Assembly: GCA_963851385.1 (NCBI GenBank) | Contig: CAWKPE010000010.1 | Span: 199,269-263,268 of the forward strand | DNA length: 64,000 bases | Direction: 5' to 3' | Source of the DNA: an uncultured Bacteroidota bacterium | GTDB lineage: Bacteria; Bacteroidota; Bacteroidia; Bacteroidales; DTGW01 | Program-made: the position numbers and the translations under genes | In this document: positions 1,074 through 31,421 of the stretch, piece by piece | Numbering within the stretch: position 1 is the stretch's first letter | Layout of the letters: the number at the start of each line of letters is the position of its first letter | The notes under the pieces: model-generated | The model's database searches: none | What the model saw: only the letters and a program-made list of their open reading frames with translations | What the model was told of the DNA's origin: nothing

Positions 1074-1682
1074 TTATTTCGAATATAGTTCTACAATCAA
1101 TTGTTCCTTAATATTTTCAGGTATTTCATTTCTTTCAGGAACATTAAGAAATTTACCTGTATAGTTATCTTTATCCCATTCTAACCAGGATGATTTTGTA
1201 TATCTTGCTGTACCCAGAGAATCGTTAATAACTTCAAGTGATTTTGATTTTTCACGTACGCCAACTATATCGCCAGGTCTTACATGAAATGAAGGAATAT
1301 TTACTACTTCTCCATTAACAGTAATATGACGATGTGTAACAAGCTGCCTGGCACCATTACGTGATTGTGCCACTCCTAAACGAAATACCACATTATCCAG
1401 TCTTGATTCTAATAATTGTAACAATACCTCACCTGTTACACCTTTGCTTCTTTGCGCTTTGTCAAAAAGATTTGCAAACTGTCTCTCCAGGCAACCATAA
1501 GTGTGTTTTGCTTTTTGTTTTTCACGTAATTGAATGCCATATTCAGAAAGTTTCTTTCTTTTTCTATTTAAACCATGTTGGCCCGGAGGATAATTTTTCT
1601 TCTCAAAAGTTTTATCTGGTCCAAAAATAGGTTCTCCAAAAATTCTTGCAATTCTAGTTTTCGGTCCTTTATATCTTGCCAT
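1074..1682 (-). CDS. rpsD: 30S ribosomal protein S4
   Basis: 202 aa, [20 protein letters not shown]... Alpha-operon position. Confidence 0.97.
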
Positions 1683-1726
1683 TATAGATAATATGAATAA
1701 ATAAAGTAATTATTAATGTATTGTCT

Positions 1727-2116
1727 TTATACTCTTCTTCTGCTGGGAGGTCTACAGCCATTGTGAGGTAAGGGAGTGACATCTACTATTTCTGCAACTT
1801 CAATACCACACGCATGAATAGAACGAATAGCGGATTCTCTTCCTGCACCTGGTCCTTTTACATACACTTTTACTTTTCGCAATCCGGCTTCATAAGCTAT
1901 CTTCCCACAATCTTCTGCAGCTGTCTGAGCAGCATAAGGTGTATTTTTTTTCGATCCCCTAAATCCCATTTTTCCGGCAGAAGACCACGAAATTACTTGT
2001 CCTTCATTATTAGTTAGCGAAATAATAATGTTATTAAATGATGCATGAATATGAGCCTGTCCTGTAGACTCAATTTTTACAACTTTTCTTTTTGATGCGC
2101 CTGTCTTTTTAGCCAT
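1727..2116 (-). CDS. rpsK: 30S ribosomal protein S11
   Basis: 129 aa, ...[19 protein letters not shown]...GRESAIR... Operon position. Confidence 0.97.
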
Positions 2117-2124
2117 TTTATTTA

Positions 2125-2505
2125 TTATCCTTTAACTGCTTTTTTCTTATTAGCGATAGTTTTCTTTCTGCCTTTTCTGGTTCTAGCATTATTTTTTGTA
2201 CGTTGTCCTCTTACCGGTAATCCTGAGCGATGACGAATTCCTCTATAACTCCCGATATCCATTAAACGTTTTATATTCAATTGAACTGATGAACGAAGTT
2301 CTCCTTCAACTTTCAATTGTTCATTGATGATAGACCTTATTTTAGTAAGTTGACTGTCGTCCCAGTCATTTACTTTAACATCTTCACTAATTCCAGCCTG
2401 AGCCAGAATTTTTTTGGCAGAGCTTCTGCCAATACCGAATATATAGGTCAAACCTATTACTCCTCTTTTATTTTTTGGTAAATCAACTCCTACGATTCTT
2501 GCCAT
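2125..2505 (-). CDS. rpsM: 30S ribosomal protein S13
   Basis: 126 aa, [14 protein letters not shown]..., basic C-terminus. Confidence 0.97.
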
Positions 2506-2539
2506 AGATTAAATTTTTGGAAGTGCAAAATTAAATAAT

Positions 2540-2656
2540 TTATCCCTGACGTTGTTTATACTTAGGATTTTTTTTGCTAATTACATAAAGACGACCTTTC
2601 CGTCTTACAATTTTGCAATCGGCGCTTCGTTTCTTTATAGATGTTTTGACTTTCAT
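2540..2656 (-). CDS. rpmJ: 50S ribosomal protein L36
   Basis: Too short for the ORF track. Hand translation gives [38 protein letters not shown] (38 aa). Lies between infA and rpsM. Confidence 0.9.
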
Positions 2657-2752
2657 TGTTTTATATTTAAATATTCTTAATTTCTATTAATTTTTGTACA
2701 GCCTGCTTGAAGCAGTCTTTTTATTGGTCCAGCTACAAACTGGCTCTTACAA

Positions 2753-2971
2753 TTATTTGTATCTGAATGTAATTCTACCTTTTGTTAAATCATAAGGTGA
2801 CATTTCAACTCTTACCTTATCTCCAGGTAATAATTTAATATAATGCATCCTCATTTTGCCGGAAATATGAGCTGTAATAACATGCCCGTTTTCCAGTTCT
2901 ACACGAAACATTGCATTTGATAATGCTTCGGTAATTGTTCCATCTTGCTCTATTGAGGCCTGTTTTGACAT
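2753..2971 (-). CDS. infA: translation initiation factor IF-1
   Basis: 72 aa, ...[35 protein letters not shown]. Confidence 0.97.
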
Positions 2972-2982
2972 AAAAAATAAAT

Positions 2983-3768
2983 TTAAAAGTCTTTATTTCC
3001 TAATACTTTTTCAACATATGAAAACGTAGACAATACATCTGCTTTATCTTTATCAATCGCCACAGCCAGTTCAAAATGAGCAGATGGTTTGTTGTCCGCT
3101 GTTCTTACTGCCCAACCATCATTCTCCTGGAATATTTTTTTCTCTCCCAAATTAATCATAGGTTCAATGCAAAGTACCATTCCTTTTTTGAGCAATGGTC
3201 CTGTTCCTCTTTTCCCGTAGTTAGGAACTTCCGGTGCCTCATGAAGGTGCGTACCTAAACCATGACCTACCATTTCACGAACTACTGAGTAACCTGATGC
3301 TTCACAATAGGATTGAACAGCAAAAGCAATATCACCAATTCTTTTTCCATCTATTGCCATTTCTATACCTTTGAACAGGCTTGCCTTGGTAACTTCAAGT
3401 AAATTATGAACTTGTTCAGAAATTTCGCCTACAGCAAAAGTATAGGCAGTATCACCATAGTACCCATTCAAAATTACACCGCAATCAATTGAAACAATAT
3501 CTCCTTCTTTTAATTCTATCTTGGAAGGAATGCCATGGACAACTTGGCTGTTTATTGAAGTACAGAGAGTTTTAGGATATTTATTATAGCCTAAAAAACC
3601 TGGAACTCCGCCATTGTTTCTAATATATTCCTCAGCCTTTTTATCCAAGTATTCGGTTGTAACTCCGGGTTTGATGAACTCGGTTACTGCGGCAAGAGTT
3701 TTTGAAACCAATAAGTTACTCTGCCTTAGTAACTCAATTTCTTCAGCTGTTCGGATATTGACCATCAA
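2983..3768 (-). CDS. map: type I methionine aminopeptidase
   Basis: 261 aa with MetAP-like contexts (VVHGIP, IDCG, VGHGLG, CIEPM). Lies between secY and infA. Confidence 0.95.
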
Positions 3769-3785
3769 AGAACTTTACGTGACTA

Positions 3786-5111
3786 TTACATACTGCTTCT
3801 ACCTTTAATACGGCCAGTTTTCATCAAACCGTCGTAATGACGCATCAGCAGATGACTTTCTATTTGTTGCAATGTATCAAGAATTACACCAACCATAATC
3901 AGCAAGCTTGTACCTCCATAAAAATGGGCAAATTTATTTTGCATACCCGAAAGGATAGCAAATGCCGGCAAGATTGCTACAATTGCTAAAAATATTGCCC
4001 CAGGTAAAGTAATTTTTGACATGACTGAATCAATAAATTCAGAAGTTTTTCTTCCGGGTTTGACACCAGGAATAAATCCACCATTTTTTTTCATATCTTC
4101 TGCCATTTGATTGGGATTAACAGTAATGGCAGTGTAAAAATATGTAAATACGACTATAAGCAATCCAAATACAAAATTATACCAAAACCCAGTAATATGT
4201 GAAAAAGCAGAAACAAAACCGCTTATACTTTCAGATTTTGCAAAACCAGCAACAGTAATTGGAATAAACATAAGAGCCTGTGCAAATATTATTGGCATAA
4301 CACCGGCAGCATTCACCTTTAATGGTATATATTGGCGAACTCCACCATATTGTTTATTACCTACAATTCTTTTTGCATACTGCACAGGAATACGCCTTGT
4401 TCCCTGAATAAGTAAAATAGTGCCTGCAAATACTACAAATAAAACTATCAATTCAGCTAAAAGAACTACTAAACCTCCTCCTTTCTGCTCTAATCTTGAT
4501 CCGAATTCTTCTAATAAAGCCGAAGGAAGCCTAGCAATAATTCCAATCATAATTAACAGTGAAATTCCGTTCCCAATTCCCTTTTCAGTTACTCTTTCGC
4601 CGAGCCACATTATAAATATAGTTCCTGCAGTTAATAATATAGCTCCAGTGACATCAAACAAGGCACCTCCCTTAAAAGCTTCACGGGGTATTGTAGCATG
4701 AAGATTTGCCAAATAACTTGGAGCTTGTAAAAGTAAAATAAGAACAGTCAAATAACGAGTATGCTGATTCATTTTGCGACGACCACTCTCGCCCTCTTTC
4801 TGTAATCTCTGATAATAAGGAACTGCCATCCCCAGCAATTGCATAACAATAGATGCAGAGATATAAGGCATAACACCAAGAGCAAAAACAGATGCGTTAG
4901 AAAAAGCACCTCCTGAAAACATGTCAAGTATTCCAAGTATACCAGAATTGACCTGATTTTTTAATTGACCAAGCATTAATGGATCAATACCTGGCAAGAC
5001 AACAAATGAACCAAGCCTATATATAAGTACAATGCCTAAAGTATAGAGTATTCTTGCACGCAATTCCTCTATCTTCCAGATATTACTTAAAGTTTCAATA
5101 AACTTTTTCAT
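3786..5111 (-). CDS. secY: preprotein translocase subunit SecY
   Basis: 441-aa polytopic membrane protein, ...FYGGTSLLIMVGVILDTLQQIESHL... Follows rplO. Confidence 0.97.
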   Translation of the reverse strand: MKKFIETLSNIWKIEELRARILYTLGIVLIYRLGSFVVLPGIDPLMLGQLKNQVNSGILGILDMFSGGAFSNASVFALGVMPYISASIVMQLLGMAVPYYQRLQKEGESGRRKMNQHTRYLTVLILLLQAPSYLANLHATIPREAFKGGALFDVTGAILLTAGTIFIMWLGERVTEKGIGNGISLLIMIGIIARLPSALLEEFGSRLEQKGGGLVVLLAELIVLFVVFAGTILLIQGTRRIPVQYAKRIVGNKQYGGVRQYIPLKVNAAGVMPIIFAQALMFIPITVAGFAKSESISGFVSAFSHITGFWYNFVFGLLIVVFTYFYTAITVNPNQMAEDMKKNGGFIPGVKPGRKTSEFIDSVMSKITLPGAIFLAIVAILPAFAILSGMQNKFAHFYGGTSLLIMVGVILDTLQQIESHLLMRHYDGLMKTGRIKGRSSM

Positions 5112-5560
5112 TAGTCAACAAGTTTTACTGCGGTTCCTTTAACTTCCAAAATAGCTGCCTCAGCAGACTTTGAAAAGGCATGAGCCTTTACTTCAAGTTT
5201 AGCAACTAACTTTCCTTTGCCCAATATTTTAATAAGATTGTTTTTAGATGCCAGACCCGCTTCAATAAGTACCTGAGGACTGACACTTGTAAGTCCTTTG
5301 TCAGCTAATCTTTGCAAAACTTCAATATTAATAGCTTTGTATTCAACTCTGTTGTAATTAGTAAAACCAAATTTAGGCAAGCGCCTTTGTATGGGCATTT
5401 GACCTCCTTCAAAACCTCTTTTTCTTGAATATCCTGAGCGAGATTTAGCACCTTTATGCCCTCTTCCGGAAGTACCACCATCTGTAGATCCCTGTCCTCT
5501 TCCAGCACGTTTATTGGCTCTTATAGATTTTTTTGCCGGTTTTAAATTACTCAAATCCAT
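5111..5560 (-). CDS. rplO: 50S ribosomal protein L15
   Basis: 149 aa with Gly/Arg-rich N-terminus [18 protein letters not shown]. Confidence 0.95.
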
Positions 5561-5652
5561 GATGTTTTTTATTTGTTTTTAGTTGTTTGTTAATAGTCGT
5601 TTGCAGAGAAATATTTTCCATCAACTTACAACCATCAACTATTTTCTATATT

Positions 5653-5832
5653 TTAAATTGGTTCAGTCTTTACTAAATGATGCACTTTCGCAATCATTCC
5701 TTTAATTACCGGATTGACTTCTACCTCAACACTGCTATTGCGTTTACCAAGACCTAATGCTTGAAGAGTTCGCAGTTGACGTTTAGTGCTACCGCTTTTA
5801 CCTTTTACCAAAACAACTTTTATTTTACTCAT
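5653..5832 (-). CDS. rpmD: 50S ribosomal protein L30
   Basis: Not in the ORF track (59 aa). Hand translation gives MSKIKVVLVKGKSGSTKRQLRTLQALGLGKRNSSVEVEVNPVIKGMIAKVHHLVKTEPI. Lies between rpsE and rplO. Confidence 0.9.
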   Translation of the reverse strand: MSKIKVVLVKGKSGSTKRQLRTLQALGLGKRNSSVEVEVNPVIKGMIAKVHHLVKTEPI

Positions 5833-5851
5833 AATACATTAGAAAAATCAA

Positions 5852-6370
5852 TTATCCTTTAAATACTTTTTCTATAGTTATATCTCGTGATTGAGCTACC
5901 CTGATAGGATCACGGAGTTCAAGTAAAGCACGAAAAGTAGCTTTTACTAAATTGTGAGGGTTAGATGATCCTTTTGATTTTGCAAGCACATCGTGGATAC
6001 CAACACTTTCAAGCACTGCGCGCATAGCACCTCCTGCTTTTACGCCAGTACCACCAGAAGCAGGTTTTAAAAATACCTTTGCACCACCATATTTAGCAAT
6101 TTGTTCATGAGGAATAGTGCCTTTATAAATCGGAACCTTAATCAGGTTTTTCTTAGCATCTTCAATTCCTTTTGATATTGCAGTAGTAACTTCACTGGCT
6201 TTTCCTAAACCATAACCTACAATTCCATCTTCGTTGCCTACTACAACTATTGCTGAAAAACTGAAAGTACGGCCTCCTTTTGTAACCTTAGTTACACGCT
6301 GAATACTTACTAACCTGTCTTTTAGTTCCAGATCGCTTGTTTTTACTTTACGAATAGCGTTTTCTGACAT
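5852..6370 (-). CDS. rpsE: 30S ribosomal protein S5
   Basis: 172 aa, ...[22 protein letters not shown]... Confidence 0.97.
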
Positions 6371-17852: not shown

Positions 17853-20009
17853 ATGAAAAATTATGTAACAAACCAGGTAAAAAATATTACCCTGCTTGGC
17901 AATTCGGGCTCGGGTAAAACCACTCTTGCCGAAGCAATGCTTTTCGAGGGTGGCGTTATAGAAAGACGTGGTACAGTAGAACAAAAAAATACAGTGTCTG
18001 ACTATAATGATATAGAACATGAAAATAAAAATTCAATTTTTTCATCTGTACTGTACACTGAATATCTTGATAAAAAAATAAATATCATAGACAACCCGGG
18101 ATTAGACGATTTTGTTGGTGGTGCTATTGCATCTATTATGGTTGCTGATTCCGCCGTACTTTTAATTAATGCCCAGAATGGTATTGAGGTTGGAACTGAA
18201 ATACATGCCCGTCATCTGGAAAACCATAAAAAACCAATGATTATATTGGTTAACCATTTGGACCATGACAAAGCAAATTTTGAAAAGGCCATTGAAATGG
18301 CCAAAGAACGTATAGGAAATAATATTACAATTTTACAATATCCAATAAATGAAGGTTCAAGCTTTAACAGTGTTATTGATGTAATGCTGATGAAGATGTT
18401 AAAATATCCCGCAGATGGAGGCAAAGCAGAAGTTGCCGACATTCCTGCAAATGAATCAGAAAAGGCTACTGCGTTGCACAATCAATTAATTGAAAAAGCA
18501 GCTGAAAGTGATGAAAAATTAATGGAAGTATTTTTTGACAAAGGCACATTGACGAGTGATGAATTACAAAAAGGAATTATGGCAGGTATAATTTCAAGAG
18601 GATTATTTCCTGTTTTATGTGCATCGGCTAAAAAGAATATGGGTGTTGGTAATTTACTTGAATTCATTTGTAATGTTGCACCAGGTCCACAGGATGTGCC
18701 CGGTTTAAAATCAACTGATGGCAAAGAAATTAAAGTCAACCCATCTTTACCGGCAGCGCTCTTTGTTTTTAAAACAAACATCGAACAGCACATTGGTGAA
18801 ATAAATTATTTTAAAGTAATAGGCGGTGAAATAGTTGAAAGTATCGACCTGGTTAATAATAATAACCAGACAAAAGAAAGATTGAGCCAATTATTTGTAT
18901 CGGCCGGTAAAAACCGCACCAAAGTTCCTAAACTTGCAGCCGGTGATATTGGCGCGACAGTAAAGCTTAAGAATACCAAGACACAACATACGCTTACTTT
19001 ATCTAATCAATCAACTATTTTCGAAAAAATAGCATTTCCAAATCCAAAATTTCGCACTGCAATTAAGGCAAAAAGCGAAGGAGATGAAGAAAAACTTGGC
19101 GAAGCACTTAACCGGATGCAACAGGAAGATCCTACTATAATAGTTGAATATTCTAAAGAACTTAAACAAACTATTCTGCATGGACAGGGAGAATACCATC
19201 TTAATATATTAAAATGGCATCTTGACAATATTTTTAAAATTCAAACTGAATTCCTTGCTCCAAAAATTCCTTATCGCGAAACAATAACTAAAATAGCTGC
19301 TGCCGACTATCGTCATAAAAAGCAATCAGGAGGAGCCGGACAGTTTGGTGAAGTTTACCTGGTAATAGAACCATATATAGAAGGAGCTCCAGACCCAACA
19401 ATGTATAAAGTTGGAAGTAAGGAAATAAAAATAAATGTTCGTCATAAAGATGAGGTTGACATGCCCTGGGGAGGTAAACTTGTTTACTATAATTGTATTG
19501 TAGGCGGTTCTATTGATGCACGTTTCATGCCTTCAATACTTAAAGGAATTATGGAAAAAATGGAAGAAGGACCACTTACGGGTTCTTACGCCCGCGATAT
19601 ACGAGTAGCAGTTTATGACGGTAAAATGCACCCTGTCGATTCTAATGATATTTCATTCAGATTAGCCGGAAGAAATGCATTTAAAGAAGCTTTCAAAAAT
19701 GCCGGTCCAAAAATTATGGAACCCATATATGACGTTGAAGTTTTTGTACCTTCCGACCGCATGGGAGATGTGATGAGCGATTTACAGGGACGCCGTGCAA
19801 TTGTTCAGGGAATGAGCAGTGAGAAAGGCTTTGAAAAAATAATTGCCAGGGTACCTCTGGCTGAAATGAATAAGTACTCAACTGCCTTGAGTTCGCTGAC
19901 TGCAGGCCGTGCAATTTATACTATGAAATTTGCCGAATATGCACAGGTTCCGGGTGAAATCCAGACTGAACTTCTGAAAGCTTATGAAGCTGAAGAAAAA
20001 GAAGAATAA
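17853..20009 (+). CDS. EF-G-like translational GTPase (paralogue, not the canonical fusA)
   Basis: 718 aa. It has P-loop GNSGSGKTT, DNPG and NHLD G-motifs, then EF-G-like domains (…YRHKKQSGGAGQFGEV…). It is divergent from the str operon. Confidence 0.85.
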   Translation: MKNYVTNQVKNITLLGNSGSGKTTLAEAMLFEGGVIERRGTVEQKNTVSDYNDIEHENKNSIFSSVLYTEYLDKKINIIDNPGLDDFVGGAIASIMVADSAVLLINAQNGIEVGTEIHARHLENHKKPMIILVNHLDHDKANFEKAIEMAKERIGNNITILQYPINEGSSFNSVIDVMLMKMLKYPADGGKAEVADIPANESEKATALHNQLIEKAAESDEKLMEVFFDKGTLTSDELQKGIMAGIISRGLFPVLCASAKKNMGVGNLLEFICNVAPGPQDVPGLKSTDGKEIKVNPSLPAALFVFKTNIEQHIGEINYFKVIGGEIVESIDLVNNNNQTKERLSQLFVSAGKNRTKVPKLAAGDIGATVKLKNTKTQHTLTLSNQSTIFEKIAFPNPKFRTAIKAKSEGDEEKLGEALNRMQQEDPTIIVEYSKELKQTILHGQGEYHLNILKWHLDNIFKIQTEFLAPKIPYRETITKIAAADYRHKKQSGGAGQFGEVYLVIEPYIEGAPDPTMYKVGSKEIKINVRHKDEVDMPWGGKLVYYNCIVGGSIDARFMPSILKGIMEKMEEGPLTGSYARDIRVAVYDGKMHPVDSNDISFRLAGRNAFKEAFKNAGPKIMEPIYDVEVFVPSDRMGDVMSDLQGRRAIVQGMSSEKGFEKIIARVPLAEMNKYSTALSSLTAGRAIYTMKFAEYAQVPGEIQTELLKAYEAEEKEE

Positions 20010-20225
20010 TTTAATGACTAATTACCAATCAATATCGTTTAGTTAAGGAACGAAACACCCTTCGACAAGCTCAGGGTGACAATAAGATGAGGTCATACTG
20101 AGCTTGTCGAAGTATGACCAATGATATAAAACTGCTTAACTAAACGACATTGAATTACCAATGACTAATTACTGATTATAATAAGTCAAATAAAAATTGA
20201 GCCCTGCAAAAGTGGAGCTTTTTGA
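19853..20225 (+). repeat. direct repeat copy 1 (3' end of EF-G-like gene + MITE + terminator start)
   Basis: Aligns by hand with 21013-21388 at a constant offset of 1160 bp. I counted 9 substitutions before the terminator region, where small indels begin. Confidence 0.9.
20030..20152 (+). mobile_element. 123-bp MITE-like nested-hairpin element, copy 1
   Basis: Terminal inverted repeats caatatcgtttagttaag / cttaactaaacgacattg. Two internal hairpins are built on cttcgacaagctcag. Flanked by a perfect 10-bp direct duplication AATTACCAAT (20020-20029 and 20153-20162). Confidence 0.8.
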
Positions 20226-20341
20226 TTACATTAAATGCAAAAAGATCAAAGTCAACTGCGATAGAATCACTAAATTTTCCATAGCGTTGTGTCCCATTTA
20301 AAAAATAAATTTCATCGAAACTTCTTAAGATTTTTTTATCT

Positions 20342-20584
20342 TTGAAAAAAAGAAAAATGCAAGCATATAGATTTGAAACACGGATATCCAAAAAAGGAGT
20401 AATACAATTACCTTTTAATCAGCAATTAGTTGATAGAGAGGTTGAAATTATTATATTGCCCAAACAGGATTTAAAAGCAAATAAAAATGCTTCTGTTGAT
20501 TTTGTAAATAAATGGGCCGGATTTCTTTCAAATGTAAATATAGAGGATTCAAAGTTTCAATATTTGAAAGAAAAATACAAATAA
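20342..20584 (+). CDS. putative antitoxin of a type II TA pair (family not recognised)
   Basis: 80-aa ORF whose stop overlaps the PIN gene start (TAATG). It is small, charged, and immediately upstream of a PIN toxin. An alternative start is M6 (20357). Confidence 0.6.
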   Translation: MKKRKMQAYRFETRISKKGVIQLPFNQQLVDREVEIIILPKQDLKANKNASVDFVNKWAGFLSNVNIEDSKFQYLKEKYK

Positions 20585-21003
20585 TGAGAGTTCTATTTGA
20601 TACAAATATAATTCTTGATATTGCTCTTGGTCGGGAACCGTATTTTACTGATTCTGCCAATGCTTTTAAGAAAATTGACAATAAATCAATATTTGGGTTC
20701 ATCACTGCAACTACAATTACAGACATCTATTATATTGCTAAAAGAGAAAAAGGCCATCAAGTTATAATTGATTTTATTGGTAACTTGATTGAAATAATTG
20801 ATGTAATAGGGATTGATAGGCAAGTAATAATTGAATCACTATTTTCTCAGCTTTTTGATTTTGAAGATGCTATACAATCGGTTTCATCTCGTTTAAATGG
20901 TATTGATTATATCATAACGCGAAACCAAAAGGATTTTGCTAAATCTGAAGTAAAAGCTTTAACTCCAAAAGAATTCTTGAACTTATTAAAGAAAATAAAA
21001 TAA
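20584..21003 (+). CDS. PIN-domain (VapC-like) toxin
   Basis: 139 aa from MRVLFDTNIILDIALG..., with acidic PIN positions (FDTN, DFEDA, ITRNQKDF). The ORF-track start at 20512 is an upstream extension. Confidence 0.8.
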   Translation: MRVLFDTNIILDIALGREPYFTDSANAFKKIDNKSIFGFITATTITDIYYIAKREKGHQVIIDFIGNLIEIIDVIGIDRQVIIESLFSQLFDFEDAIQSVSSRLNGIDYIITRNQKDFAKSEVKALTPKEFLNLLKKIK

Positions 21004-21012
21004 TAAAAACAG

Positions 21013-21169
21013 ACCTCTGGCAGAAATGAATAAGTGCTCAACTGCCTTGAGTTCGCTGACTGCAGGACGTGCAATTTATACTATGAAATTTGCTGAATAC
21101 GCTCAGGTTCCCGGTGAAATCCAGACTGAACTTCTGAAAGCTTATGAAGCAGAAGAAAAAGAAGAATAA
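21013..21169 (+). pseudogene. orphan 3' fragment (last ~52 codons) of an EF-G-like gene
   Basis: Reads PLAEMNKCSTALSSLTAGRAIYTMKFAEYAQVPGEIQTELLKAYEAEEKEE*. An in-frame TAA lies a few codons upstream and there is no N-terminal part. Confidence 0.85.
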
Positions 21170-21189
21170 TTTAATGACTAATTACCAAT

Positions 21190-21312
21190 CAATATCGTTT
21201 AGTTAAGGAACGAAACACCCTTCGACAAGCTCAGGGTGACAATAAGATGAGGTCATACTGAGCTTGTCGAAGTATGACCAATGATATAAAACTGCTTAAC
21301 TAAACGACATTG
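21190..21312 (+). mobile_element. 123-bp MITE-like element, copy 2 (inside repeat copy 2)
   Basis: Identical by eye to copy 1, including the same 10-bp flanks. It was therefore duplicated with the repeat and not inserted independently. Confidence 0.8.
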
Positions 21313-21358
21313 AATTACCAATGACTGATTACTGATTATAATAAGTCAAATAAAAATT

Positions 21359-21388
21359 GAGCCCTGCAAAATGAAGTGGGGCTTTTTT
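21359..21388 (+). terminator. weak rho-independent terminator
   Basis: agccc ... gggct stem (5 bp) followed by TTTTTT. Confidence 0.4.
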
Positions 21389-21637
21389 ATTTTAATCACA
21401 TACAAACGTAGTGTTCATTTCTACAACATAGCATTTGTTATGTAATAAATATTTAGAATATAAACAGAAATATTAGTTATTTATTTACAAAAATTTTGTT
21501 TTGACATAATTATTTATATTTTTGATTGTCAATTACTTTTAACGCTCATGTACAAAGTATTTTATATATCACGAATAGATAGAATAAGTCAAAGCCGAAA
21601 AGCTAAATAAATGTAAGAAAATTTAAAACTTAATATT

Positions 21638-22825
21638 ATGAAAACTTCAAAATTATTTTTACTTTTTAATTGTATTGCTGTGTTTTTATAACTAATGTAC
21701 AAGCGCAAACGAATGTTGCTGCTGCTCCTACCAAGCCGGTATTTTTAATAAATGGTACATGTTCCACTACACTTTCCTATATGAATGATGGTAATACATC
21801 TACATTAGCCAGTCTGTATTATCCTGGCGCTATTTCCTTTTATATTGATTTGGGGAATGGAGCTGCGAATTATTTTGATCTTACCTCTACAACAATTTAT
21901 TGGGCAAGTGGAAATTATTTAACAAGTTATACTATATACACATCACCTGATAATACCAACTGGACAGTTGCATTATCAGTTACTGGTAATTCAAGTCTTA
22001 CAGATTCACACAGTCTTACTACAGGCAAAACATACGTGAGGTATGTGAAATTTGTGGCAGGTAATTATGCGAATCTCTATAATCTTGGAATTTATGATTT
22101 CCAGGTATTTGGTTCTCCCAGTATTGCATTACCGGCTTCGTTCAGTACAATAAATGTTTCTAGTACTGCCACTTTTGGCGCTACTGCCTCATTTACCGGG
22201 GGAATTACAGCAGGTGCTTTAAACACGCCAACTATAAATAATTCGGGTAACTTGAATCTGCAAACTGGCGGAACAAATAGAATCACTATTCTCAACCCAA
22301 GTGGTCAGGTAGATATTTTAAATGATTCTTTTAGTTTCTGGAGCAACAACTACCGGAAGTTTAACAACTACAGGTGCAATTTCTGCAGGAAGCTTAACAG
22401 CAACAGGTACAATTTCGGCAGCAAATTTAACAGTTTCCGGTAGTACATCTTTAAATAATTTATCAATTGCCGGATGTTTTTCTATTCCAGGTACTGTTAG
22501 TATTGGCTGTAATAGAATTGAGCCAGGTTATTCTCTTGCAGTAAATGGTGGAATTATTACTACTGGATTAGTAGTACAATATTATAATAATTGGCCTGAT
22601 TTCATATTTTCAAAGACTTATAAACTAAAATCCCTTGCTGAAACGGAAGAATACATAAAAGCCAATAAACATCTGGAAGGTGTGCCAACTGAAACCGAAG
22701 TTAAAGAAAAAGGTATTGATGTTGCTGAAATGAATACCATTTTATTAAAGAAAATTGAGGAAATGACCCTGCTGATGATTGAGCAGAATAAACGCATTGA
22801 AGCTTTGGAAAAAAAAGGAAAATGA
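21638..22825 (+). pseudogene. secreted tail-fibre-like protein with F5/8 type C (discoidin)-like N-domain, two frame breaks as sequenced
   Basis: The ATG at 21638 gives signal-peptide-like MKTSKLFLLF... and stops after 17 codons. ORF 21670-22443 continues with a discoidin-like domain. ORF 22322-22825 carries 11-aa GSLTTTGAISA-type repeats and a coiled C-terminus WPDFIFSKTYKLKSLAETEEYIKANKHLEG... Confidence 0.6.
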
Positions 22826-28370: not shown

Positions 28371-28904
28371 CCCCATACCTCTTAAAAAAGGTAATTTCCT
28401 AGATTATGGTACATTCTAAATCCCTTCCAAATTTAAATGTCACATATTCAATTATTTTTTCTCTACCTTTTTCTTAAAAAAAAGTAGCCAAAATTCAAGA
28501 AAATCTGAAGCTTCAACCCACAAGGCTCCCGCACCCTCGCCAGATTTTCAGGCCCACGCACACCGGCCTTTGTCCGGTTTTGGGGAAGTGCTCAAAATAA
28601 ACATTAGTCGCCATTGAATATGAACTAAAATAAATTAATAGCTAGCCAATGTGTAATGGCTTTTTCACGGATGGTGCGGAAAGCAGGTTTTGATGCATAA
28701 GTTCTAATCATTAAAAAAACAATGAATTTATTTATGTGCCACTTCTCTCAATTTACATGCAAAACCGAAACCTGATTTCTTCATTCGTGGTGACTTTTTT
28801 TGTTACTTTTTTTTATGGCAGAAAAAAAAGTAAATTCCAGTATGATAAGAACGTCATTATTTTGTGCCAATATCTAGGAAATTATTCTTAAAAAGGGTCT
28901 GGGG
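28371..28904 (-). mobile_element. structured intergenic repeat, copy A (shares ~85-nt core with 35069-35457 and 54684-55089)
   Basis: Imperfect terminal inverted repeats (…aggtaatttcctagat / atctaggaaatta…, ends cccca / tgggg). The core gtagccaaaattcaagaaaatctgaagcttcaaccc...ccctcgccagattttcaggcc aligns with the reverse complement of copy B. Confidence 0.6.
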
Positions 28905-29073
28905 TTAATTATGTAAAATAATTTAAACATTAACCGAAAAATTATTTTATAGAACCAATAGCTAATAGCCAACAGCCCTTTTGTTAATAAAATTTTTAAT
29001 GATTTTAACGTTGCATTCAAAAAGAAAACTTAGTAGTAAGTACCTTTAGAAATTATTTATAAAGAAAAAACAA

Positions 29074-31421
29074 GTGATCAATTTTCTCAAAGATTTGAAT
29101 GAGCCGCAGTACGAAGCAGTGGTTTATAATGATGGTCCTTCTTTAGTTATAGCAGGTGCAGGTTCAGGTAAAACAAGAGTTTTAACTTATAAAGTCGCTT
29201 ATTTGCTTTCGCAGGGCGTAAATGCGCGATCTATTCTGGCACTTACATTTACCAATAAAGCAGCCAGGGAAATGAAAGAGCGTATTTCCAAACTTGTGGG
29301 ACCCGATTTGGCCCGCAACTTATGGATGGGTACATTTCATTCAATCTTTTCAAAAATCCTCAGATTCGAATCAGCCACTATGGGATATAGTTCAAATTAC
29401 TCCATTTACGATACTTCGGATTCGAAAAGTGTTATTAAAGCAGTAATAAAAGAACTTAATCTCGACGACCAAATTTATAAGGTTAATGAAGTTATGAGCC
29501 GTATTTCAATGGCAAAAAACAATCTCGTTACACCACAGGGTTATATTGCCAACAACCAGATCATGGAGCAGGACAGGGCTTCTCGCAAACCCCGAATTGC
29601 TGACATTTACCGGCTTTATTGCCTGCGTTGCAAGAAAGCCGACGCTATGGATTTTGACGATCTGTTGCTTAATACTAATATTCTGTTTCGAGACGTTGCT
29701 GATATTTTGGATAAGTACAGGAGGATTTTCAGTTACATTCTTGTTGACGAATACCAGGACACAAATTTTTCCCAATACCTGATTGTAAATAAACTCGCAT
29801 CTGTTCATAAAAAAATATGCGTAGTTGGCGACGATGCACAAAGTATTTATTCATTTCGCGGGGCCAAGATTGAAAACATCCTGAATTTCAAAAATGATTA
29901 TCCCGATTACAAACTTTTCAAACTTGAACAAAATTACCGATCGACACAAAATATAGTTAATGCGGCAAACAGCATTATTGCTAAAAATAAAGGACAGATT
30001 CATAAGAAAGTCTGGTCGGCCAAAGAGCATGGTGAACCAGTAAAAGTGTTCGAAGCTGAAACCGACCAGGAAGAAGGATTTATTATCGCCAATAACATTT
30101 TAGACACGAGATTGACCAAGCAACTTAATTTCAACCAGTTTGCAATATTGTATCGCACAAATGCCCAAAGCCGTATTTTCGAAGAATCACTGCGAAAAAG
30201 AAATATACCTTATAAAGTTTATGGAAGCTTATCGTTTTACCAGCGAAAAGAAATAAAAGATCTGTTGGCTTATTTTCGCCTTACTGTAAATAAAAACGAT
30301 GAAGAGGCTCTAAAACGGATTATTAATTATCCTGCCCGTGGAATAGGTTCCGTGTACAATTGACAAAATAGAAGAATATTCAAATACATCTGAAAAGAGC
30401 ATGTGGACGGCAATTAACGAACCTGATATACATAATTTGGGACTCAATAAAGGTACTATTCAGAAAATCGAAAATTTCAGAGATTTGATTAATGGGTTTT
30501 CTGTAAAGTTATATGACAGAAGAAGCGTACAATCTTGCCATGCATATTGCCAAGTCAAGCGGCATTATGTCTGACCTTAAAAGTGAAAGCACTTTTGAAA
30601 GTATGAGCAGAATGGAGAATATTGAAGAACTATTGAACAGCATCAAAGAATTTTCGGACAGTTTACAAAATGAAATTACTACTATTATTACTCTTGATAA
30701 ATATCTCGAAAATGTTTCCCTGCTAACCGATGCTGACACAGATAAAAATGAAGATCGTGATAAAGTCAGCCTGATGACAATTCATTCTGCAAAAGGATTA
30801 GAATTTGATTATGTATTCATTGCAGGAGTTGAAGAAGATTTGTTTCCTTCGAAAATGGCACTTGTATCACCACAGGAACTTGAAGAAGAAAGAAGACTGT
30901 TTTACGTTGCAGTGACACGAGCAGGTCAATTAGCAACTATTTCGTACGCTTCACATCGATATAAATGGGGCGTGCCTACTGTTTGCACTCCAAGCCGCTT
31001 TATAAAAGATATTGATGAAAAATATGTTGAATTGCCGCTATCAATTGAAAATGATAATTCATCAGACTTTGATTTTAACAACCTTTTTGATAAGCCTGAA
31101 GAATTAAAAACCAGACAGCGTAATATTTCAAAGTCCAAGATAGCAGAATCGGTTAAAACAGTTACACCTCTAAATCTAAATAAAAAGCTGGTAGATATGA
31201 AAACTGCATCCAGGAAACAATCTCAGCTTAGTGAAACTTTCGATGCTGATGACCCTTCTAAAATAAAAACAGGTATGACAGTAAATCATCAGCAATTTGG
31301 CAATGGGAAAATCATCAGCATTGAAGGAAAAGAACCAAATACCAAAGCTGTAGTATTTTTTGAGAGTGCAGGAGAAAAGAAGCTTTTGCTAAAATTTGCC
31401 AGATTGAAAATTGTTGAATAA
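29074..31421 (+). pseudogene. UvrD/PcrA/Rep-family ATP-dependent DNA helicase, two frame breaks as sequenced
   Basis: ORF 29074-30363 carries AGAGSGKT and VDEYQDTN motifs. A middle piece TIDKIEEYSNTSEKSMWTAINEP... was read by hand in a second frame (30355-30510). ORF 30513-31421 carries the C-terminal helicase motifs (…SLMTIHSAKGLEFDYVFI…, …RRLFYVAVTRA…). Confidence 0.85.

Follow-up and report, generated by a model that had tools for sequence, protein, structure and literature searches.

The window analysed here, a 64,000-nt stretch of DNA from an uncultured Bacteroidota bin, contains the 3′ end of one gene twice. The question raised by this locus is how the two copies came to differ within the coding sequence while the non-coding DNA that follows them is nearly identical. 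The gene is EF-G2, and its displaced end lies behind a small two-gene insert.

17853–20009, plus strand: live EF-G2 gene (718 aa), an open reading frame that matches NCBIfam NF058620 EFG2_Bacteroid and the Pfam EF-G domains
19853–20224, plus strand: left repeat arm, composed of the last 51 codons and stop of EF-G2, a MITE and a weakened terminator hairpin; it carries the 'live' allele
20225–21012, plus strand: inserted cassette of 788 nt with a promoter region and two overlapping genes; 27% GC versus 33% for the genome
21013–21169, plus strand: orphan EF-G2 3′ fragment of 51 codons and a stop, with seven synonymous differences and Tyr675Cys relative to the live gene

EF-G2 scores 1218 bits against the NF058620 EFG2_Bacteroid model (cut-off, 1000 bits) and is transcribed divergently from rpsL/rpsG. 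The left arm leaves the gene whole, with an intact frame of the full orthologue length of 718 aa. The orphan fragment begins 9 nt past the stop codon of the second cassette gene, a toxin gene, and is the right arm of a direct repeat of ∼372 nt that brackets the cassette. The two arms (19853–20224 and 21013–21387) are 96% identical. In an ungapped alignment of 19853–20009 with 21013–21169, the offset between the arms is constant at 1160 nt, and the coding stretch differs at eight sites, seven synonymous third positions and the one that produces Tyr675Cys.

Coding differences, live/orphan, in live-gene coordinates: 19862 T/A, 19876 A/G, 19907 C/A, 19934 C/T
Coding differences, continued: 19940 T/C, 19943 A/T, 19952 G/C, 19991 T/A

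The adjoining 202 non-coding nt (20010–20211), which include the 123-nt MITE, differ from the right arm only at 20167 (A/G). Beyond this point, the two arms remain alignable through a terminator hairpin to approximately 20224 and 21387, respectively, and there differ by a 3-nt indel and one or two substitutions. The differences thus cluster at the two edges of the repeat, whereas the central ∼220 nt hardly differ between the arms. An earlier sequence-only reading had counted eight substitutions in 157 coding nt, seven of them synonymous third-position changes and one a Tyr-to-Cys replacement, and a single difference in the ∼200 nt beyond. The alignment recovers the same eight sites and both coding counts, and the single non-coding difference holds over the 202 nt.

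The distribution of these differences was quantified by a codon-aware comparison. The Nei-Gojobori method applied to the 51 codons gives seven synonymous differences over 34.3 synonymous sites and one non-synonymous difference over 118.7 non-synonymous sites, corresponding to dS = 0.24, dN = 0.0085 and dN/dS = 0.036, a strong synonymous bias. With both copies neutral, the probability of at least seven synonymous changes among eight is 1.8e-4. Under the fairest in-situ model, in which constraint acts on the live copy only, it is 4.8e-3. The synonymous sites also contrast with the non-coding DNA (Fisher P = 5.2e-6); had the 202 nt changed at the synonymous rate, they should show ∼41 differences, and they show one. 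A plain duplication in situ, after which the live copy stayed under purifying selection and the dead one decayed neutrally, is compatible with the geometry of the repeat taken alone, and the single non-synonymous change of the dead copy does fall on a tyrosine that is invariant among orthologues. This history is scarcely credible, because it is precisely the model that is rejected both on codon position (P = 0.005) and on the coding/non-coding contrast (P = 5e-6), as the sequence-only reading had anticipated when it judged a dead in-situ duplicate to be a poor fit. Its further claim, that the coding copies diverged under purifying selection in different lineages, is likewise supported by the two sets of statistics. 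Both copies mostly diverged under purifying selection and therefore belong to different lineages that were joined by recombination. The coding 140 nt represent two EF-G2 alleles that split under purifying selection in separate but close lineages (dS ∼0.24).

The non-coding part of the arms has a different age, which is set by the MITE.

20030–20152, plus strand: MITE copy 1, 123 nt, a nested hairpin with a 10-nt target duplication (AATTACCAAT) at 20020–20029 and 20153–20162
21190–21312, plus strand: MITE copy 2, identical to copy 1 at 123/123 positions

The MITE folds with −50.8 kcal/mol (z = −10) and belongs to a family of elements with 10-nt target duplications, of which the genome contains 43 near-full-length copies. 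The other copies are mostly 95–96% identical to copy 1 (2–8% different), and the nearest one has two differences. The ∼220 nt that follow the coding stretch in the two arms descend from a very recent common ancestor. Under the assumption that MITE copies and synonymous sites drift comparably, the last common ancestor of the arm centres is at least 40 times more recent than that of the coding parts, and the two coding alleles had already separated when the MITE family spread. The MITE of the two arms would therefore not go back to the common ancestor of the coding alleles. Either the arms were recently duplicated or converted, or the coding stretch of one arm was swapped. A plain single crossover would not by itself homogenise the non-coding part; a heteroduplex or conversion tract or a separate event is needed. 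A link between the MITE and the mobility of the cassette was also considered and was rejected, since four other cassette loci of the assembly, described below, have no MITE in their arms.

The relationship of the two lineages was addressed by comparison with EF-G2 orthologues. Among ∼60 orthologues, the live and orphan ends are mutual nearest relatives, with eight differences between them versus at least 22 to any other, and the second lineage is therefore a close relative. Tyr675 is invariant in 55/55 orthologues and is replaced by cysteine in the orphan. Because of this invariance, the Tyr-to-Cys change fits a derived, later and relaxed mutation in the dead copy, as judged from the aligned sequences. 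The seven third positions are saturated among 33 orthologues, so that Tyr-to-Cys is the only change that outgroups polarise. The proposal of the sequence-only reading that one arm was imported from a relative thus stands as far as the close-relative lineage is concerned, with either arm a candidate for the import. Taken together, the arms are probably a recombination mosaic, in which two EF-G2 alleles from separate close lineages meet around a recombinase-free cassette insertion.

Donor and conspecific sequences were sought in several collections. An exact-protein look-up of the live EF-G2, at full length and as the 710-aa piece expected on a k = 31 contig, gave no match. In a search of 5.8 billion protein clusters, the nearest non-self EF-G2 is 95% identical in amino acid sequence over the last 249 residues, and the nearest EF-G2 ends show 22–24 nucleotide differences in the last 156 nt. 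The best match among 40 GTDB relatives reaches 79% nucleotide identity, the best in a scan of metagenome contigs 87% amino acid identity, and plasmids, phages and viral contigs gave none. The five closest orthologous loci (85% nucleotide identity) contain a single EF-G2 end with no cassette and no MITE, and their downstream synteny differs. A similar toxin (69% amino acid identity) occurs in only one relative, 2.7 Mb from its EF-G2. In the only relative of the same genus, EF-G2 is cut by the end of a contig (C44, 1–352) ∼100 nt before the position at which the repeat would start. The 3′ end of this EF-G2 is absent from the whole assembly, which could hint at a repeat there too.

A second, independent assembly covers most of the locus. 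A Logan contig of ERR10755942 (961 nt) is 100% identical to window positions 20182–21142 and confirms both cassette junctions and seven of the eight fragment alleles. Its left end lies 30 nt before 20212, the first base specific to the left arm, and its right end lies 30 nt past the fragment-specific base 21112. Both ends coincide with the points at which a k = 31 graph would branch in a sample that contains these two arms and no others. Since the contig runs unbroken from 20182 to 21142 at k = 31, the sample contains no other sequence in which the orphan alleles stand behind the DNA upstream in EF-G2. Among the live alleles, 19952 is the one backed by this assembly, indirectly through the break point at 21142. 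These observations bear on the idea that the mosaic is an assembly or consensus artefact, produced either by polishing errors or by threading the EF-G2 allele of one strain onto the cassette locus of another. The genome is a metagenome bin with 3% contamination, and one of its contigs (C30) is visibly chimeric, with the GC content falling from 65% to 31% at ∼8.5 kb, so that an artefact is conceivable in this material. It is nevertheless quite unlikely. Errors would not favour synonymous third positions (7/8), the EF-G2 frame is intact over its 718 aa, and the Logan contig reproduces the 961 nt exactly. A strain-chimeric contig is disfavoured in particular because a strain with identical arms would break the k = 31 contig near 21042, and the contig instead reaches 21142.

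The insert between the arms contains two overlapping genes.

20357–20584, plus strand: antitoxin-like gene (75 aa), whose stop overlaps the toxin start (TAATG); its role is suggested by its position
20584–21003, plus strand: intact PIN-domain (VapC-like) toxin gene (139 aa), PF13470 PIN_3, E = 1.3e-16

The toxin retains all columns that are invariant in 20 homologues, including D12, D47, D92, D95 and D117. The 75-aa partner has no Pfam or NCBIfam match and is conserved upstream of every homologous PIN gene retrieved. Homologous two-gene cassettes (65–84% amino acid identity) are found in many unrelated metagenome contexts, and the homology of the cassette to other contigs is limited to the stretch between a point ∼70 nt before the antitoxin ATG and the stop codon of the toxin gene. 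On these features, the cassette is predicted to be a portable VapBC-like toxin–antitoxin module. The 788-nt insert holds the two cassette genes only, with no integrase or transposase, and a screen of the 328-kb contig C10 that was confined to tyrosine and serine recombinases (PF00589, PF00239) finds none. Repeats flanking the cassette were also sought at homologous PIN cassettes elsewhere. On an unrelated contig (Logan contig SRR27069942), a perfect 30-nt direct repeat (2096–2125 and 2900–2929; spacing, 804 nt; intergenic) flanks a homologous PIN cassette (81% amino acid identity). At three other homologous cassettes, flanking repeats are absent or doubtful.

Each arm ends in a copy of the EF-G2 terminator, and the two copies differ in quality.

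20199–20224, plus strand: degenerate copy of the EF-G2 terminator with a 3-nt loop deletion and one stem mismatch
21359–21394, plus strand: intact native rho-independent terminator with a 9-bp stem and a T tract, detected by a terminator scan

The left copy folds with −6.7 kcal/mol, no better than shuffled sequences, and is missed by the terminator scan. The right copy folds with −14.2 kcal/mol (z = −2.9) and resembles the terminator behind the EF-G2 gene of a relative. The cassette operon now finishes with the orphan end, MITE copy 2 and the native terminator. Further downstream in the window, the ORFs 21670–22443 (F5/8 type C domain) and 22322–22825 overlap and resemble a single gene broken by a frameshift.

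A self-comparison of the genome revealed four more loci at which a gene 3′ end, a cassette and an orphan copy of the 3′ end follow one another.

Contig C1, 12418–12567 and 13322–13471, cassette on the minus strand: glycosyltransferase (group-1) host gene with a HEPN/nucleotidyltransferase (MNT-like) pair
Contig C13, 149620–149745 and 150454–150579: FeoB-like host gene with a single cation-efflux gene as the cassette
Contig C3, 62305–62385 and 64483–64563: outer-membrane β-barrel host gene with a two-gene cassette, one gene of which is TonB_C
Contig C30 (high-GC foreign segment), within 1500–6000: serS host gene with a HicB/HicA cassette, followed by an orphan serS 3′ fragment

The arms on C1 are 150 nt long and 91% identical and duplicate the last 51 codons of the glycosyltransferase gene. 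Their homology ends at the stop codon, and in the first seven codons nearly all differences are at third positions. The C13 arms (∼120 nt, 85% identical) comprise the last 41 codons of the FeoB-like gene, with 14 synonymous and seven non-synonymous differences. The C3 repeats (∼81 nt) duplicate the last 22 codons and 13 nt of the β-barrel gene. The arms on C30 are 345 nt long and 87% identical, and the orphan starts 4 nt past the hicA stop. The segment 1–8500 of C30 has a GC content of 65% versus 31% for the remainder, and the contig is probably a chimeric join with DNA from another organism. Across all five loci, the orphan starts 0–43 nt past the last stop of the cassette, and pN/pS between the arms ranges from 0.04 to 0.23. 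At three of the four other loci, the homology stops exactly at the stop codon. The pooled counts (45 synonymous and 24 non-synonymous differences) reject the in-situ model with P = 1.4e-6, and the rejection holds without the EF-G2 locus of the window (P = 4.4e-5).

Because the window and C1 loci both duplicate 51 codons and a stop, a fixed 51-codon ruler was considered; it was rejected, since the other loci duplicate 22, 41 and at least 64 codons. Three further repeat structures in the assembly were recorded. On C25, 118-nt palindrome-rich repeats (4268–4385 and 4780–4897) flank a 125-aa gene that is DUF559-like by sequence judgement. On C28, 84-nt repeats (28440–28523 and 29066–29149) flank a 153-aa gene that resembles IS200-like or REP-associated transposases by the same kind of judgement. 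The C25 and C28 repeats look like different, hairpin-based elements and not like duplicated gene ends. Contig C19 (1–3525) is a tandem array with a period of 252 nt and ∼99% identity between units.

The low dN/dS of the EF-G2 arms would also be expected if the fragment were alive, that is, if a 47-aa EF-G2 tail peptide starting at the ATG at 21026 were maintained by selection, for instance because it acts in the PIN system as a third component. The 47-aa frame is open, begins 22 nt past the toxin stop and lies within the cassette transcript, before the strong terminator. A living fragment is highly improbable even so. It does not account for the age gap between the non-coding DNA and the synonymous sites, the former being at least 40 times younger, and the sole amino acid change would have struck the residue that is invariant in all 55 orthologues. 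Homologous cassettes elsewhere also lack such an ORF, and the orphans at the other loci contain in-frame stops or frameshifts upstream of their homologous part.

Every path that was constructed for the mosaic requires at least two events after the MITE insertion. The favoured path, held at slightly under an even chance, has the cassette insert duplicatively and the live gene acquire an imported allele afterwards. In its first step, the MITE would have landed behind EF-G2. In the second, the insertion of the cassette would have copied the gene end, the MITE and the terminator, producing identical arms and a scarred left terminator. In the third, homologous recombination would have replaced part of the live gene with the allele of a related lineage, with the right-hand crossover of the import falling between 19992 and the MITE. 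The orphan would then preserve the older resident allele as a fossil. Import into the live gene is preferred because imports are the commonest recombination events and no fine-tuning is needed. An import confined to the orphan is implausible, because its first difference has no more than 9 nt of homology on the left. A point against the favoured path is the left terminator, whose indel and substitutions fall within ∼15 nt and require an extra assumption, either a junction scar or selection.

The diverged left terminator fits better with a foreign left arm. In such an alternative, the cassette arrived together with a foreign gene end, so that the live arm is donor DNA, the orphan is the displaced resident end, and the centre was homogenised later. 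This is a sub-path of the two-lineage mosaic and no denial of it. Entry would have occurred by homology-facilitated illegitimate recombination or by Campbell-type integration of a circle composed of an EF-G2 3′ end and the cassette. The central ∼220 nt, including the MITE, would have been homogenised by gene conversion or by the heteroduplex tract of a crossover. Diverged edges around an identical centre are the classic pattern of conversion between repeats, and the left terminator looks like a different allele. The other cassette loci point in the same direction, with a synonymous bias at all four and homology that ends exactly at the stop codon at three, a limit that fits better with homeologous arms than with a random target duplication. 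There is also a precedent in icd/e14, where the replacement gene end carries synonymous differences. The alternative is possible but doubtful. Conversion would have had to cover the most diverged part of the arms, the non-coding DNA with a 133-nt MITE heterology, and to spare the 95%-identical coding part. The donor arrangement, EF-G2 followed by the cassette, was not found in relatives, plasmids, phages, viral contigs or metagenomes, and the two events needed equal those of the favoured path, duplicative insertion with import into the live gene.

A gene end orphaned by a cassette can serve as an internal fossil, through which allelic replacement by homologous recombination becomes detectable in an uncultured lineage without a sequenced close relative. 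The synonymous bias of the arms at five loci bears on the mechanism of insertion, namely on whether the repeats are true target duplications or pairs of donor and recipient ends. A tentative generalisation, unlikely rather than likely at present, is that small cassettes (PIN toxin–antitoxin, HEPN/nucleotidyltransferase, HicAB and cation-efflux) spread between related lineages, in this and other uncultured genomes, without a recombinase by using the accompanying 3′ end of a conserved host gene as a homology arm, and that long target duplications are really donor and recipient gene ends. If true, this would explain the synonymous bias, the homology limits at stop codons and the orphan starts within ∼40 nt of the cassette at five loci. 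Such repeat arms could loop out or amplify the cassette, and they are trouble spots for assemblers and annotators.

Compared with known systems, the locus is a further case of an already described class of cassette insertion without a recombinase and is not a new system. Its cargo resembles type II VapBC modules in that a small gene precedes a 139-aa PIN gene in a two-gene operon, its stop overlapping the PIN start codon, and in that the acidic residues of the PIN gene product are conserved. It differs from curated VapBC modules in its 75-aa putative antitoxin, which matches no curated family.

The mode of insertion is closest to the long target duplications described for restriction-modification (RM) units (Nobusato et al. 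2000; Furuta, Abe & Kobayashi 2010, PMC2853133). These RM units have no mobility genes and are flanked by repeats of 46–423 bp that often overlap the 3′ end of a neighbouring gene, and a life cycle of insertion, amplification and release has been hypothesised for them (PMC2853133). The EF-G2 locus likewise contains a small addiction-type unit without a mobility gene between long direct repeats (372 bp). Its repeats exceed the 30 bp, and its insert stays below the 20 kb without integrase or transposase, by which long target duplications are delimited. The cargo is a PIN toxin–antitoxin pair instead of an RM unit, but RM cargo was a search criterion and not a mechanistic one, and the host is an uncultured Bacteroidota bin. 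In RM units, the repeats duplicate unique target DNA and are nearly identical (for example, 417/423; PMC2853133), whereas the arms here are different alleles with a strong synonymous bias. The EF-G2 arms are therefore not, or no longer, a simple duplication. The five loci extend long target duplication from RM units to toxin–antitoxin and other small cassettes in Bacteroidota.

A second counterpart is found in the unconventional circularizable structures (UCS; Palmieri et al. 2013, as described in PMC7843796), which are recombinase-free segments between long direct repeats. According to that description, their definition rests on resistance genes of Gram-positive mobile elements, and PCR demonstrated their excision. 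The long direct repeats at the EF-G2 locus similarly bracket a recombinase-free segment, which could in principle loop out as a circle with one repeat and re-enter by homologous recombination.

The third counterpart is the icd/icdC pair around e14 (and phage 21) in E. coli K-12, for which PMC13626634, citing Hill et al. 1989, gives mostly synonymous and a few conservative differences. The 15-kb prophage e14 brings its own site-specific integrase and has a defined att core. The insert here measures 0.8 kb, has no tyrosine or serine recombinase on its contig and shows an identical stretch of ∼220 nt. The resulting layouts are alike. In both cases, the insert occupies the 3′ end of an essential gene, the gene remains whole, and a displaced C-terminal pseudogene fragment stands at the far end of the insert. 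As in icd/icdC, the end of the live EF-G2 gene and its displaced fragment differ mainly at synonymous sites (7 versus 1 here).
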